DNA from: Desulfosudaceae bacterium
Lineage (GTDB): Bacteria > Desulfobacterota > Desulfobacteria > Desulfobacterales > Desulfosudaceae
Length of the DNA stretch: 64,000 nt
Reading direction: 5' to 3'
NCBI GenBank assembly: GCA_963674745.2
Contig: CAXXDV010000003.1
Location: 1,344,001 to 1,408,000, forward strand
Made by a program: the position numbers and the translations under genes
The notes under the pieces: model-generated
Database searches by the model: none
What the model was told of the DNA's origin: nothing
Seen by the model: the letters and a program-made list of their open reading frames with translations, nothing else
Part shown: positions 3,026 through 9,278 of the stretch, piece by piece
How the letters are laid out: each line of letters starts with the position of its first letter
Position numbering within the stretch: the first letter of the stretch is position 1

Positions 3026-3158
3026 TAAATGTTCCATCGCGCTTTCTGATATTGAATTGCATTGTAAATCCAACTAGTTATTTGTTTACGGGTGCTAAGG
3101 GAAGATGCAGCGAACAACGGTTATGCGTTTTAGGGGAAAATGATTGTGGCGGGTAAAT

Positions 3159-4085
3159 ATGTATTGTAACAAGAATTCCTTTTTCAATCTGATGCCGGTC
3201 ATATTGCTAAGCGCCGTTTTGACCGGATTTCTTTGCGGGCCGCTGGAAGCCGGAAACAACATACAGGTATTTGTCAGCATTCTGCCGCAAAAGTATTTTG
3301 TTCAACAAATCGGTACTAACAGCGTTGACGTTCAGGTCATGGTCCCGCCAGGGGCAAGCCCGGCCACGTATGAACCCAGACCATCACAGATGAAAGCGCT
3401 GGTAAATACGGACATTTATTTTGCCATCGGGGTTCCCTTTGAAAAAGTCTGGCTGAACAAAATCGCCGCCATTAATCCCCGGTTGAAGATAATTCATACG
3501 GATGAGGGCATTCAAAAACAGTTTCTGGCAGATCATATTCATGAAGGAGCGACCGGCCATGCGGTAGACAGGCATGGACATAATGATTCGTCGGGACATA
3601 TTCCAGACCCCCACATATGGCTTTCACCACCGTTGGTCATGATACAGGCCAGGGCCATACTGCTCGGTCTGGAGCAGGCAGATCCGGATCGCCGGGCCAT
3701 ATACGCGCAAAATTACCGGAACTTTATTGCAAAGCTGGTGGATATTGACGAAGCATTGCGGCAATTGTTCGATCAGACCGTCAACAAACGTTTTATGGTG
3801 CTGCATCCAGCCTGGGGATATTTTGCCCATGCCTACGGTCTGGTTCAGGTTCCCATAGAAATCGAAGGGAAAAACCCCAAACCGGCCCAGCTAAAAGAAC
3901 TGATTGATTACGCCCGGCAGCACGGCCTGTCAACTGTTTTAGCACAACCACAGTCTTCGTCCAAGTTTGCGGAACAGCTGGCAAAGGCCATTAAGGGGAA
4001 AGTGACTTATGCCGACCCGCTTTCTTCTGACTGGGACCGGAATTTGGTTCAAGTGGCTGAAAAAATAAAAAACACCCTGAAGTAA
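3159..4085 (+). CDS. znuA: Zinc ABC transporter substrate-binding protein
   Basis: SPATYEP, His-rich loop, DPHIWLSP, HPAWGYF; first gene of a metal ABC operon. Start codon uncertain (3144/3159/3192). Confidence 0.9.
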   Translation: MYCNKNSFFNLMPVILLSAVLTGFLCGPLEAGNNIQVFVSILPQKYFVQQIGTNSVDVQVMVPPGASPATYEPRPSQMKALVNTDIYFAIGVPFEKVWLNKIAAINPRLKIIHTDEGIQKQFLADHIHEGATGHAVDRHGHNDSSGHIPDPHIWLSPPLVMIQARAILLGLEQADPDRRAIYAQNYRNFIAKLVDIDEALRQLFDQTVNKRFMVLHPAWGYFAHAYGLVQVPIEIEGKNPKPAQLKELIDYARQHGLSTVLAQPQSSSKFAEQLAKAIKGKVTYADPLSSDWDRNLVQVAEKIKNTLK

Positions 4086-4099
4086 GTCAAGTCCTGTTT

Positions 4100-4879
4100 A
4101 TGGATCAAGTAATTGTTGATATCAAAGACCTTTTTTTCTCCTATAACGGATTTCCCGTTCTGGAGGGCGTTAACCTGTCGATCCAGGAAAACGATTTTAT
4201 CGCCATTATCGGTCCTAACGGCGGCGGTAAAACATCCCTCTTGAAAATTATGCTGGGGCTTCTTCAACCGGATAGGGGAGTCGTCAGGGTGTTGGGCGGT
4301 CCTCCCCAAAAAGCGTCTCACCATATCGGATACGTGCCGCAGAACATCAACATTAATCCGAATTTCCCGGTTACGGTCATGGATATCGTTTTGATGGGCA
4401 GGCTGGGGCCTTTCAAAAAGAAAATCGGAGAAACAGGCCGGGATCGCAAACTGGCAATGACCGCCCTGGAGCAAATGGAAATGGCGTCTTTTGCCCACCG
4501 GCGGATCAGTCAACTGTCCGGCGGGCAGCGGCAACGGGTATTTATTTCCAGGGCACTGGTTACGCAACCGCGCCTGTTGCTTCTAGACGAACCGACCGCC
4601 AGCATTGACACAAAAGGACAAAACGATTTCTACGCGCTGCTCAAAGAGTTAAACAAAGACATCACGATTATCGTGGTCAGCCATGATCTGCTGGTCATCT
4701 CCCGATATATGAAATCAGTGGCCTGTGTAAACAGACGGCTGCATTATCACCGGGAATCCGAAATCACAGGGAAGGTGATGGACACCATATGCCCCTGTAC
4801 GGTAGAGGATATTTGTCCGGTTGGATTGGTTACCCCCATGCTGAATTTCAACTCAGGACAAAATACCCGGAAAGATTAA
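4100..4879 (+). CDS. znuC: Zinc ABC transporter ATP-binding protein
   Basis: Walker A GPNGGGKT, LSGGQRQR, LLLLDEP, IGYVPQ. Confidence 0.92.
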   Translation: MDQVIVDIKDLFFSYNGFPVLEGVNLSIQENDFIAIIGPNGGGKTSLLKIMLGLLQPDRGVVRVLGGPPQKASHHIGYVPQNININPNFPVTVMDIVLMGRLGPFKKKIGETGRDRKLAMTALEQMEMASFAHRRISQLSGGQRQRVFISRALVTQPRLLLLDEPTASIDTKGQNDFYALLKELNKDITIIVVSHDLLVISRYMKSVACVNRRLHYHRESEITGKVMDTICPCTVEDICPVGLVTPMLNFNSGQNTRKD

Positions 4880-4882
4880 CCG

Positions 4883-5707
4883 ATGATAGAGCTTCTGCAA
4901 TATGAATTCATGCGCAACGCCTTAATGGCCGGTATTCTGGCCAGCATCATCTGCGGAATAATGGGTACCCTGGTTGTCGTTAACCGGATTGTCTTTCTCT
5001 CCGGTGGTATCGCCCATGCCGCTTACGGGGGGATCGGCATGTCCTTTTATTTCGGTTGGCCGTACCTGGCCGGGACGATGGGCTTTTCCGTGGCCGCAGC
5101 CGCACTTATGGCCGGTGTCAGCATGAAAGCAAAACACCGGGCCGATACTGTCATCGGCGTGATCTGGTCCATGGGCATGGCCAGCGGCGTCATTTTTCTG
5201 GATATGACCCCGGGATATAACGTCGACCTGATGAGTTATCTGTTTGGCAGTATACTGGCCGTTCCGTTGTCTCATCTGTGGGTAATGTTCATTTCAAGTT
5301 TTGTCATTCTCGGCCTGGTGTTTTATTTTTTCCATGACCTCCTGGCACTGTCCTATGACGAGGAATTTGCCAAAATCAGAGGTGTGCCGACCACCGCGCT
5401 TTATTTTTTAATGATCATCATGCTGGCCGTGACGATTGTGATGGTTATTCAGATTGTGGGGCTGATTCTGGTAATCGCATTGCTGACGATACCGCCATAC
5501 ATCATGGAGAAGCGGGTAAAATCCCTGCCACAAATGATGATCGGCGCCAGCCTGCTGGGAATGGTGTTTACCGTTATCGGATTGTGGATATCTTTTGTTT
5601 ATAATATAACATCCGGAGCGGCCATTATTATGGTTGCCGGTATATTTTTCTTCATATCATTGATTTTAGACCGCGTAACCGATCGTTACAGACGGGAACC
5701 TGCTTAA
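4883..5707 (+). CDS. znuB: Zinc ABC transporter permease
   Basis: ABC-3 family motifs GIAHAAYGG, YLFGSIL, GLILVIALLTIP; multiple transmembrane helices. Confidence 0.92.
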   Translation: MIELLQYEFMRNALMAGILASIICGIMGTLVVVNRIVFLSGGIAHAAYGGIGMSFYFGWPYLAGTMGFSVAAAALMAGVSMKAKHRADTVIGVIWSMGMASGVIFLDMTPGYNVDLMSYLFGSILAVPLSHLWVMFISSFVILGLVFYFFHDLLALSYDEEFAKIRGVPTTALYFLMIIMLAVTIVMVIQIVGLILVIALLTIPPYIMEKRVKSLPQMMIGASLLGMVFTVIGLWISFVYNITSGAAIIMVAGIFFFISLILDRVTDRYRREPA

Positions 5708-5722
5708 GGCAATTATCCAATT

Positions 5723-6151
5723 ATGAACCATCAGTGTGACTATGAGGCCCTGTTAAAGGCCGTAAACCTGCGGATTACCGATAACCGTCTTCAGGTGCTG
5801 CAAGTAATCGGCAAAAACCATTATCCGCTTTCGGCGACGGATATCCATCATAAGCTGGAATGCGACAGCACCATTAACCGCGTTACCGTTTATCGCATAC
5901 TTGAATTGCTGGTGGGAAATGGTTTGATTGAAAGGCTCAGTACAGGCGGCCGCGCCTTTTACTATGGTCTGACGCTAAACCACAATCACCGCTCGCACGC
6001 CCATTTTTATTGTAAAAAATGCGGTCAGATGGAATGCCTGACCCCTGAAAGTCTAACCGCGGATACCAGCCAACTGGGGAAAATTTTTCCCGGACGGATT
6101 GAAAAAGTGGAAATACGTGTCGATGGTATCTGTAAAAATTGTTTACCGTAA
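5723..6151 (+). CDS. zur: Fur-family regulator, probably Zur
   Basis: RVTVYRIL, HAHFYCKKCG, C-terminal GICKNC; located in the znu operon. Confidence 0.8.
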   Translation: MNHQCDYEALLKAVNLRITDNRLQVLQVIGKNHYPLSATDIHHKLECDSTINRVTVYRILELLVGNGLIERLSTGGRAFYYGLTLNHNHRSHAHFYCKKCGQMECLTPESLTADTSQLGKIFPGRIEKVEIRVDGICKNCLP

Positions 6152-7863: not shown

Positions 7864-7910
7864 CTTTGTGTTTTTCATCTTTTGAGGTGGAACGGTTTTC
7901 ATATCACCTA

Positions 7911-7950
7911 AAAATAAGGGCTCACAGAATCTCTGTAAGCCCTTATTTTT
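7911..7950. terminator. Intrinsic, possibly bidirectional terminator hairpin; homologous to the hairpin beside tRNA-Arg
   Basis: AAAATAAGGGCTCACAGA-ATC-TCTGTAAGCCCTTATTTT inverted repeat with A/T tails. Confidence 0.75.
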
Positions 7951-7952
7951 AT

Positions 7953-8037: not shown

Positions 8038-9066
8038 TTATCGCAGGGCATCAGTGATAAAACAGCCACCACCTCCACCACCTCCACCACCTCCACCGCC
8101 TCCATCGTCTTCATCTCCGTTGGTAACGGCATTGATTATGATCGAAACCATATCTACATCAGTCAGACCGGTCAAATCTTCCACTGTCAATTGAAACGTC
8201 AATGTTAACGGATCTCCGGTAACTTCCGGTGCTGTAAACGTCGGGTTGACGGCTGATGAATCCGAAAGCGTCACATTGACTCCCGCGGTCTGCTGCCAGA
8301 GGTAGCTGATGATATCATCATCCGGATGAAAAGAGCCGGAACCGTCCAGTGTTACCTGGTCCCCTTCGGTAACGGTTTGATCACCACCCGCATCGGCAGT
8401 CGGCGGCACATTGTCTTCATCTGCCACGGTTATCGTAACGGTGTCGGTGTCGAAAAAACCGGCCTCGTCTCTCACCCTCAGTTGAAAGGTCAACACTTCC
8501 GGATTCCCGGAGACCTCCGGTGCCGTTAACGTGGGGTTGACCGCTGATGAATCCGACAATGTCACACTGACGCCTGCCGTCTGCCGCCAGAAATAGCTCG
8601 CGATGTCATTGTCCAGATCGGATGAACCGGAACCGTTCAGCGTTACCAGGCTGTTTTCGATGACGGTTTGATCTGCACCCGCATCAGCGTTCGGTGAGTT
8701 AAACTTCCTGAAAACCGCTGTAACGTCTGTTGGCCCATCAGCAGACACAAATAAAGGATTGGATGTTGTTCTCGACGTATTGACGATCCATTCGATAAAT
8801 TGAAAACCGCCATTTGTATTGGGTGTAGCTGTAAGGGTGTATTCGTTGCTGCATGTATAAACGGCCGGGTATGCGGTTATGGGGGTTGTAAAATTGGGGG
8901 ACGTAACCTCACCGCCATTTGCCGGGCTGACATTCACGGTCAGCGGGTCAATCCCTCAACCGGCTTCGGCAGGGCCGGGGAAATTCAGAAAACAACCGAT
9001 CAGAAGCAGGAATACGCAACCGTAAAAACTTTTAAGTGTGTTGTTCAAAAAATGTTTGCTGGTCAT
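8038..9066 (-). CDS. Secreted surface protein (InlB B-repeat-like domain, two PKD/REJ-like domains, poly-Gly-CFI C-terminus) with an in-frame TGA at codon 37: candidate selenoprotein or nonsense pseudogene
   Basis: AAGGAG RBS (9078-9073), ATG 9066, signal peptide ending PAEA-G, TGA at 8958-8956, then in frame into ORF 8038..8937. Two ADAG.DQTV..G..VTL.GSGS repeats; ends in a Gly run followed by CFITDALR. Confidence 0.75.
8926..8944 (-). promoter_or_regulatory. Putative bacterial SECIS hairpin
   Basis: mRNA reads UGA-GGGAUUGACCC (11 nt)-GCUGAC-CGUGAAU-GUCAGC: perfect 6-bp stem, with G in loop position 2 followed by U. Confidence 0.55.
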
Positions 9067-9229
9067 ATTTTTCTCCTTATTGATTTGATATGGGGACAAA
9101 ATTATCCCCTTTCATTTCTAATGATAAGTCTTCAAAGCGTTGTATAGCTGATTGCCAAGTTAGGAATATCGTTTGAATAGGCGACCAATTTGTTATTACT
9201 TATGAAGCGTTGCCAAAAAACAGGGCAAA

Positions 9230-9278
9230 TACCACAATGTGGTAGTTCAATATTATTATTATCCTGTTCTCGTGTCAA
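9230..9278 (-). promoter_or_regulatory. Sigma70-type promoter with overlapping palindromic operator, upstream of the PKD gene
   Basis: Minus strand TTGACA (9278-9273)-N17-TAATAT (9255-9250); perfect palindrome TACCACA-A-TGTGGTA at 9230-9244. Confidence 0.55.

Follow-up and report, generated by a model that had tools for sequence, protein, structure and literature searches.

To our knowledge, the selenoproteins known from bacteria are nearly all redox enzymes or proteins that handle metals or sulfur, and they carry selenocysteine (Sec) in an active site. In E. coli fdhF the Sec insertion sequence (SECIS), a small hairpin within the coding region, lies 11 nt after the in-frame UGA. Here we describe a gene on the minus strand, from position 9066 to position 8038 of a 64,000-nucleotide stretch of a Desulfosudaceae genome (contig CAXXDV010000003.1 of assembly GCA_963674745.2, positions 1,344,001 to 1,408,000; hereafter the window), a single gene whose UGA very probably encodes Sec, judging from comparison with its relatives. 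Its product is predicted to be exported, with Sec close to the mature N-terminus and ahead of an InlB-B-repeat-like domain and two PKD domains.

The family to which this gene belongs resembles fdhF-type selenoprotein genes in having an in-frame UGA with a small coding-region hairpin just downstream (at 11 nt in 33 of 51 family genes). The two are further alike in the G-U at loop positions 2–3, the presence of selA, selB, selC and selD in the genome, and the existence of Cys homologs; the bacterial SECIS (bSECIS) consensus used for comparison is that of Zhang and Gladyshev as given in PMC13188914. The family departs from the fdhF type in that it is not an oxidoreductase and carries its Sec at the very N-terminal tip of an exported product, in that its hairpin is almost identical across two phyla, and in that Cys forms are rare (2 versus 51).

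Two kinds of exported selenoprotein also invite comparison. The SAO proteins SaoB and SaoC, as presented in the accessible parts of 10.1101/2022.07.06.499078, share an extracellularly exposed Sec, a nearby Cys and truncation in databases; they differ in belonging to ABC substrate-binding and CC-COOH families, in having CU motifs that are internal or C-terminal, and in a conserved nine-gene neighborhood, of which none was seen for the window family. The Omp28-related selenoprotein NF045500/GOS_C is likewise exported, Sec-containing and truncated by annotation, and U-x-x-C occurs in two family relatives, whereas the family has no thioredoxin fold or Pfam match to one, its U lies on an N-terminal tail, and its Cys is mostly 28–88 residues away.

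For the scaffold, the closest relatives are the InlB B-repeat and Listeria-Bacteroides repeats (PF18998, PF09479, TIGR02543): the module scores above the PF18998 cut-off in seven of nine relatives scanned and below it in the window copy, and it has the common LTVxVSP first strand. Ordinary InlB-type repeats differ in having no N-terminal Sec or Cys and mostly a local CPxxC, which the Sec module lacks. In Gram-positive bacteria, adhesin and pilin domains with covalent cross-links (5u6f, 3b2m and the CnaB2 domain 8bdw) are similarly all-beta, of similar size and part of surface proteins, with weak fold matches (Z 6.2–5.0), and they have in common with the proposed Sec-Cys pair the notion of a covalent staple within the molecule; they differ in using isopeptide, ester, thioester or disulfide chemistry, and no sequence relationship to the family was found.

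Organization of the gene

The features of the locus are as follows, in window coordinates.

9250..9278, minus strand: promoter-like sequence (TTGACA-17-TAATAT) some 185 nt ahead of the ATG (weak; a consensus scan only, 10 of 12 matches)
9073..9078, minus strand: Shine-Dalgarno sequence AAGGAG, 6 nt before the ATG at 9066-9064 (sequence reading)
8038..9066, minus strand: intact gene, ATG 9066 to TAA 8040-8038, 342-residue product (translation of the frame)
8962..9066, minus strand: putative signal peptide M1-A35, MTSKHFLNNTLKSFYGCVFLLLIGCFLNFPGPAEA (translation; judged by eye)
8956..8958, minus strand: in-frame TGA, codon 37, read as Sec, at predicted mature position 2 (G-U-G-I-D-P...; sequence and alignment)
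8945..8955, minus strand: spacer of 11 nt between TGA and hairpin (sequence reading)
8926..8944, minus strand: SECIS-type hairpin GCUGAC-CGUGAAU-GUCAGC, over codons P-L-T-V-N-V-S-P (sequence, folding, conservation)
8692..8955, minus strand: N-terminal all-beta module, residues 38-125, related to the divergent InlB B-repeat PF18998 (Pfam, AlphaFold2)
8851..8853, minus strand: Cys72 (codon TGC) within VYTCSNE, proposed partner of Sec37; the module contains no other Cys (sequence)
8161..8682, minus strand: two PKD domains, residues 129-214 and 219-302 (Pfam PF22352 122.7 bits, PF18911 55.2 bits)
8041..8103, minus strand: run of 13 Gly, then the C-terminal tail CFITDALR (translation)
7909..7951, no strand assigned: strong terminator hairpin, flanked by runs of A and U, in the gap that separates the gene from a convergent amine-oxidase gene (folding)

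From 9066 to 8038 the frame is open apart from one TGA at 8958-8956, and the product would consist of a signal peptide, Gly, Sec, the InlB-B-repeat-like domain, the two PKD domains and the Gly-run/CFITDALR tail. A mechanical list of open reading frames (ORFs) begins the gene instead at GTG 8937 (8038..8937, 299 aa), which lies within the loop of the hairpin, the parts of which are GCTGAC (8944-8939), CGTGAAT (8938-8932) and GTCAGC (8931-8926). The gene model of a preliminary description of this DNA, with AAGGAG, ATG 9066, a single in-frame TGA and a hairpin 11 nt further on, matches the sequence exactly.

The putative signal peptide, recognized by eye, has lysines near the N-terminus (K4, K12), a hydrophobic core and A-x-A (...PGPAEA) before the predicted cut, from which the placement of Sec at mature position 2 follows by the A-x-A rule; the same N-terminal layout is common to all 51 relatives. 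The terminator hairpin at 7951-7909 has a folding energy of −27.9 kcal/mol (z −8.2), equaled by none of 200 shuffles.

Conservation and distribution of the TGA

Searching the source genome (G000) with the read-through protein reveals five TGA-bearing paralogs, the window gene included, and one paralog without a TGA. A congeneric genome (G002) likewise has five and one; 61 genomes were searched and four gave any match. Three features stand out. First, all ten TGAs of the two genomes fall in one alignment column right behind the signal peptide, in the pattern ...P-G-x-A-x-A-(A/G)-U-G-x-P-x-L-T-V-[ND]-V-S-P. Second, both TGA-less genes have TGT (Cys) at the Sec column and no hairpin (G000 C1:1647582 and G002 C9:15715), and each lies immediately 3′ of a TGA paralog in tandem. 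Third, TGA stands at this column in 51 distinct genes, five from the source genome, five from the congener and the rest from metagenome-assembled genomes (MAGs) of Desulfobacterales type and of Dehalococcoidales, a total that omits one chance row (L200). These homologs bear out the expectation in the preliminary description of a conserved TGA or Cys at this codon, the only two TGA-less N-terminal homologs having Cys.

The tandem arrangement of a Sec form followed by a Cys form is thus present in two species of the genus (G000:C1:1646226-1648580 and G002:C9:14652-16065), and the Cys-form paralog of the pair has neither the hairpin nor the mid-domain Cys.

Among the 51 genes, 26 come from the protein search and are independent of any DNA motif. 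An exact 20-nt hairpin pattern was also scanned over contigs, with one genome per species, and yielded 40 loci. In 27 of these the pattern leads into LTV[ND]VSP, with a signal peptide and an in-frame TGA 11–17 nt upstream; the other 13 have neither and are chance matches. Names found in the titles of these 27 records are Desulfobacterales, Desulfobacteraceae, Desulfococcus, Desulfonema, Desulfosalsimonadaceae, Syntrophaceae and 'Deltaproteobacteria', together with four Dehalococcoidales, one 'Proteobacteria' and one 'uncultured bacterium', and by the same titles the carriers come from sulfidic sediments. A looser DNA pattern gave, among the matches listed, 80 readable loci: six family members, 73 without a TGA and one with a chance TGA and no signal peptide. 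As matches to the looser pattern are mostly due to chance in GC-rich genomes, no family count is taken from it.

A profile of the module matched 115 of 401 genomes of the source order, mostly through ordinary B-repeats, and Sec forms are present in at least 16 of the 401, a lower bound from fetched loci only. Library-wide the profile matched 70,425 representatives at E≤0.001, the best 150 of which are all long repeat proteins, and this search is not a census of Sec or Cys forms. A protein homology search with residues 1-130 gave one match, to a metagenomic protein beginning at the corresponding VNVSP. Public gene calls shorten genes of this family by starting at the GTG in the SECIS loop, whereby the signal peptide is lost.

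Six family genes (L032, L037 and L048 in G000; L043, L047 and L041 in G002) have a second TGA where relatives end in TAA or TAG, which in L041 is only near the family end point (residue 539, against 541–551 aa in paralogs). TGA thus serves as an ordinary stop in both genomes where no hairpin follows.

The TGA of the window gene is also reproduced in assembled reads, the check that the preliminary description had proposed. A Logan contig from what is probably the source run agrees with the window at every position from 8107 to 9200, though its reads and those of the assembly are not independent. From a marine-sediment metagenome, a contig of 251 nt that is 92% identical covers 8860-9086 with 17 differences and keeps the TGA and the hairpin; 13 of the 17 are listed with their places, and none of the 13 is in either element. 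An RNA metatranscriptome contig (X4) covers 8405-8646 only, the PKD part, and so does not reach the TGA.

The SECIS-type hairpin

The bSECIS constraints given in the Fig. 2 legend of a 2026 AEM review (PMC13188914), the part of that source drawn on here, are a loop of 3–9 nt, a stem of 4–16 bp, G in loop position 1 or 2 followed by G or U, 16–37 nt from UGA to loop, and a minimum free energy (MFE) of −7.5 kcal/mol or lower. The window hairpin has a 7-nt loop starting C-G-U, a 6-bp stem and a UGA-to-loop distance of 17 nt (17, 20, 23 or 26 nt in relatives), all within these bounds, with the energy marginally so. The SECIS-like hairpin claimed at the outset is thereby compatible with the published constraints. 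The hairpin alone folds at −7.0 kcal/mol, equaled by none of 200 shuffles (z −4.76); its 39-nt context has an MFE of −11.5 and a centroid energy of −8.1 kcal/mol and is not unusual (z −1.06).

The sequence GCTGAC-N7-GTCAGC occurs at six sites in the whole genome, and five of them are the TGA paralogs, each with the TGA exactly 11 nt upstream. Six-frame translation of the genome contains 24 LTVxVS peptides, and only those of the five Sec paralogs are coded CTGACCGTGnnnGTCAGC (CTG-ACC-GTG-nnn-GTC-AGC). Behind the TGA, the ten Sec genes of the two genomes read GCTGACCGTG[GA][AC]TGTCAGCC, and in the two Cys genes the same stretch has diverged to a sequence unable to form the stem. Across the family GCUGAC-CGUGnnn-GUCAGC lies 3′ of the TGA by 11 nt (33 genes), 14 nt (7), 17 nt (10) or 20 nt (1).

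The genes recovered by protein search only are the more informative for hairpin conservation, as 27 of the 51 were fished with the hairpin sequence itself and are no evidence for it. Of the 26 from protein search, 25 are coded G-CTG-ACC-GTG-nnn-GTC-AGC-C, including the third-position G of the codon before Leu, and the remaining one has U-U as its outer stem pair. From the codon usage of their gene bodies, this coding would be expected at about 0.001 per gene. Two related genes (L241 and L242) have a compensated variant, CUUUGAC-CGUGUC[AC]-GUCAAAG, in which both partners of two stem pairs have changed (G-C is now U-A, as is C-G), one pair is added, and Ser is replaced by Lys. In the 51-sequence alignment 99.7% of stem cells pair, two of the six pairs having double changes and four being invariant. 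Since covariation is thin, the RNA evidence consists mostly of invariance at synonymous sites; read in this way, the alignments indicate that the hairpin is under selection at the RNA level.

The selenocysteine machinery

The source genome (5.55 Mb in three contigs, 99.96% complete) contains a tRNA-Sec gene, selC (75.1 bits against a cut-off of 47), together with selB (369.8 bits), selA (607.9 bits) and selD (368.6 bits), all above their curated cut-offs; the complete set that a selenoprotein reading calls for, and that the preliminary description had asked after, is therefore in place. In the second phylum, all five carriers tested (four titled Dehalococcoidales and one 'uncultured bacterium') have selB and tRNA-Sec above cut-off.

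The selD gene (G000:C1:326061-326981, locus L018) also encodes a selenoprotein, its frame containing a single TGA (...VAGAG-U-ASKLAPGDL). The genome also encodes a second, divergent SelB-like protein of 676 aa (G000:C3:1795409-1797292, minus strand; locus L010:1492-3522), which is 25% identical to canonical SelB over its full length and scores 239.9 bits against TIGR00475, just below cut-off. It retains the SelB beta-barrel and the last winged helix, and its switch-II DxxG (DVPGH) is aligned as EIPVC.

The N-terminal module and its passengers

The module of the window protein matches PF18998 with an E-value of 7.6e-4 and 19.9 bits, below the gathering cut-off of 23.6, and seven of nine relatives scanned are above it (26.5–216.8 bits); another relative, L048, has no Pfam match at all. 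The PKD domains behind the module, at 122.7 and 55.2 bits, compare with a cut-off of 27. An AlphaFold2 model of residues 38-125, built from 39 sequences, is all-beta, with a predicted local distance difference test score (pLDDT) of 88.3 and a predicted template modeling score (pTM) of 0.76. Foldseek finds nothing in the PDB at E≤0.001 with this model. A wider fold comparison with VIA-align recovers pilin and adhesin domains with covalent cross-links and the InlB B-repeat at Z 6.2 to 4.2, the InlB B-repeat 2y5p reaching 4.2 only; these matches are weak, Z below 8 being common background. A sequence search of the PDB returned one spurious match to the module profile (E 0.055) and none to a 541-aa paralog.

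What follows the Sec unit varies among relatives: three or four PKD domains, MopE with three fn3 domains, an uncharacterized region of about 400 residues, or, in the Dehalococcoidales members, further B-repeats and a C-terminal membrane anchor. By comparison of these architectures, the signal peptide-Sec-B-repeat unit is a portable N-terminal module carried on varied passengers. No partner gene is common to the neighborhoods of the window copy and the two paralog clusters.

Three tandem Sec-tipped paralogs (L031, L048 and L032; G000:C1:2629329-2636238, L122:7576-12619) share the C-terminal region of about 400 residues, which consists of four similar repeats with motifs like YFPHV..SPWQTEIA.INT and also lies behind the Sec module in several MAG relatives. 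In L031 this region has no Pfam match above cut-off and no PDB sequence match, and L048 is again without a Pfam match.

The single cysteine

In 50 of the 51 Sec modules there is exactly one Cys within 95 residues after Sec, L066 having none. Its position falls into the following classes.

Cys +34 to +45 from Sec: Y-T-C-S type, as in the window, 23 genes
Cys +71 to +88 from Sec: before the last strand, 17 genes
Cys +67 to +69 from Sec: in an insert, 3 genes
Cys +1 to +3 from Sec: UC, UxC or UxxC, 4 genes
Cys +28, +49 or +59 from Sec: single cases, 3 genes
No Cys after Sec: L066, 1 gene

Among 55 B-repeat domains without Sec that were taken from these loci, 39 contain two Cys, placed in a local CPxxC loop. 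As Cys is usually paired in B-repeat domains, the Sec module appears to have swapped that pair for Sec and one Cys elsewhere. The one-Cys rule makes a Sec37-Cys72 selenenylsulfide pair a reasonably good prediction for the window protein, and to that extent lends indirect support to the pairing with the Cys of VYTCSNE first put forward; the part of that suggestion which does not carry over to the family is the site, the Cys being not always at VYTCS. The simpler notion that Sec stands in for one Cys of the usual B-repeat disulfide was rejected, the ordinary pair being a local CPxxC loop elsewhere in the domain.

In related genomes of Desulfobacterales type there are giant multi-repeat surface proteins (L103, L107, L109, L113 and others) with dozens of B-repeat domains, in each of which C-P-x-x-C is conserved in the loop that separates strands two and three.

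Proposed role and alternative explanations

The preliminary description had proposed a new selenoprotein, and the sel genes, the TGA in 51 genes, the Cys forms, the fit to the SECIS constraints and the reads all speak in favor of that proposal; on these comparisons we regard Sec insertion at codon 37 as highly likely. SelB would bring Sec-tRNA to the UGA, guided by the 19-nt SECIS in the coding sequence of the first beta-strand (L-T-V-N-V-S). The signal peptide would be cut behind A-x-A, leaving Sec within the first one or two mature residues, on a short flexible tail ahead of the InlB-B-repeat-like domain, where its selenol could bond to the single Cys of the module to give a selenenylsulfide. 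Such a Se-S pair could survive or re-form in sulfidic, reducing habitats better than a disulfide. The decoding mechanism is apparently standard and the context apparently extracellular and non-enzymatic, and the pair may act as a staple, as a cross-link or means of covalent adhesion, or as a soft ligand for metals or sulfur species. 'Adhesin' as a label for the window protein is a guess from its domain types. A bolder proposal, which we offer as speculation that is unlikely to hold, is that the unit would be a portable selenium cap for surface proteins of anaerobes exposed to sulfide, making enzyme-free Se-S bonds where disulfides cannot persist and so stapling the first domain, linking subunits into fibers or meshes, or fastening the cell to thiol or sulfide surfaces.

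Several observations weigh against the main interpretation, of Sec insertion and a Sec-Cys pair. Only two homologs have Cys at the N-terminal column, against 51 with Sec, which is unusual for a bacterial selenoprotein family. The hairpin alone, at −7.0 kcal/mol, is short of −7.5 and reaches it only with its flanks, and an 86-nt fold around the site has a z of −2.1 only and does not contain the 6-bp hairpin. The stem covariation comes from two related sequences and probably reflects a single event, with no variation at the four other pairs, and kinship among the genes inflates the argument from synonymous sites, to which the 27 genes fished with the hairpin do not contribute. The Cys may lie anywhere from +1 to +88 and is missing from one member, and a second Cys is likewise missing from one Cys-form paralog. 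The window copy is under the Pfam cut-off for PF18998, and no conserved neighboring gene hints at function.

The TGA might instead be a real stop, the gene being broken by a nonsense mutation or sequencing error, or else two genes being present, an upstream ORF of 36 codons and another of 299 codons from GTG 8937. Gene callers, the ORF list and the sole database match, with its start at VNVSP, do agree on such a division, but the same 'break' would have to recur at one column in 51 genes of two phyla, G-x-P-x-L-T is conserved in frame between the TGA and the GTG, a product started at the GTG would have no signal peptide and would lack half of the first strand, paralogs have Cys at the TGA column, and the reads agree with the TGA; we consider a real stop extremely improbable. 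It is also very unlikely that the UGA serves chiefly for regulation or kinetics, by way of a slow, selenium-dependent ribosome pause at about codon 35–40, as the signal peptide emerges, that would tie the export or expression of surface proteins to selenium and make the chemistry of residue 37 secondary. The Sec or Cys codon is at 34–45 in 36 of the 39 genes listed (37 Sec-form and 2 Cys-form; the starts of the three outliers, at 53, 75 and 79, were probably mis-chosen), and 34–45 codons is about the length of the ribosomal exit tunnel. Signal-peptide length nevertheless explains this position simply, and both the restriction of substitutions at the Sec column to Cys and the one-Cys rule point to chemistry.

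Where Sec is accepted, its chemistry could still differ from an intramolecular Se-S bond. The Sec-Cys couple may be intermolecular, joining a second copy, a paralog, or surface thiols or persulfides, with enzyme-free cross-linking, fibers or covalent adhesion as the outcome. Each module does provide a single donor, the Sec of its flexible tip, and a single acceptor, its Cys; the paralogs are arranged in tandem, with a row of three at C1:2.63 Mb and pairs of a Sec form and a Cys form in two species; and the best fold matches are pilins and adhesin domains known for covalent cross-links. Those matches are weak, however (best Z 6.2, in the range below 8 that is common background for the tool), the UC, UxC and UxxC members (4 of 51) resemble local intramolecular couples, and the Dehalococcoidales members are membrane-anchored single proteins, so that we rate intermolecular coupling as rather doubtful. 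Alternatively, Sec and Cys could form a soft-ligand site at the tip for a metal or sulfur species (Cu, Zn, Hg, Fe-S mineral surfaces or polysulfide) with no stable Se-S bond. The adjacent U/C variants resemble the CU/UxxC motifs of metal or redox type in the exported SAO proteins, as far as the accessible parts of 10.1101/2022.07.06.499078 describe these, one relative has a MopE-type putative metal-binding motif, and carriers are from sulfidic sediments by record title. Against such a site, by our count 47 of 51 genes have the Cys 28–88 residues away, and conservation extends to no further ligand residue; nor are metal-handling genes conserved beside the paralogs, the ZnuABC/Fur genes at 3144-6151 being on the other strand and not seen beside other copies. 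A ligand site is accordingly a possibility to which we give a low probability, and the selenenylsulfide within the module remains the reading that we prefer.

Two further candidates were discarded. A lipoprotein, with Sec as the lipidated +1 residue, is at odds with the lipobox consensus, which is of the L-[AS]-[GA]-C type with a hydrophobic residue at −3: here −3 is often E, D, K or G (AEAG-U, VDAA-U, AKAA-U), and inspection of the N-termini by eye places N, D or R at −1 in three genes. A thioredoxin-fold UxxC selenoprotein was rejected because there is no thioredoxin-type match in Pfam or NCBIfam and the model is all-beta; UxxC is found in two of the 51 relatives, on the N-terminal tail.

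Relation to catalogued families and implications

NCBIfam (June 2026) has no model for the signal peptide-Sec-B-repeat unit, and full-text literature searches turned up no paper that combines selenocysteine with 'InlB B-repeat' or selenoprotein with 'PKD domain'. The family table of the 2026 AEM review, in the portion available, lists none of PF18998, PF09479, TIGR02543, PF22352 and PF18911, and the words 'Listeria', 'signal peptide', 'secreted' and 'surface' are absent from it. No such family appears in the available text of the Haft 2022 preprint, deep-Sep, BSepDB and the 2007 Olavius paper, a comparison that does not extend to BSepDB Table S2 and the OS_HP1-3 alignments. The family is sizeable and apparently uncatalogued, and may be identical with a 'hypothetical' family listed in BSepDB or as OS_HP1-3.

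In this family Sec would sit at the tip of exported, adhesin-like scaffolds with interchangeable passengers, and Sec is nearly always used over Cys. If correct, this would widen bacterial selenium use to the cell surface, possibly in a structural or adhesive role; and were the speculative cap to prove real, it would be a selenium analogue of isopeptide and thioester pilus chemistry and the first structural or adhesive, non-catalytic Sec in bacteria. The selenoproteomes of Sec-rich anaerobes would gain several genes, five in the source genome alone, and a systematic annotation error is exposed, in which the start is placed at the GTG in the SECIS loop. The hairpin would also provide a compact, nearly invariant natural SECIS of 19 nt for studies of SelB recognition outside E. 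coli. Because the source genome is in three contigs and resembles a cultured strain, the family should be directly testable.

A C-terminal tag

NCBIfam contains no match to the window protein, its CF[ILV] tail included. This tail is an example of a C-terminal tag that recurs in the genome, composed of a Gly/Ser-rich run, an invariant C-F-[ILV], 5–9 further residues and the stop. About 20 of 34 matches to a regular expression in the genome look genuine (e.g. C1:2506733, C1:723579, C3:1573543, C3:900778 and C3:320347). The tag is too short for a membrane helix and may be a sorting or modification signal; it is present on Sec and Cys PKD paralogs alike.

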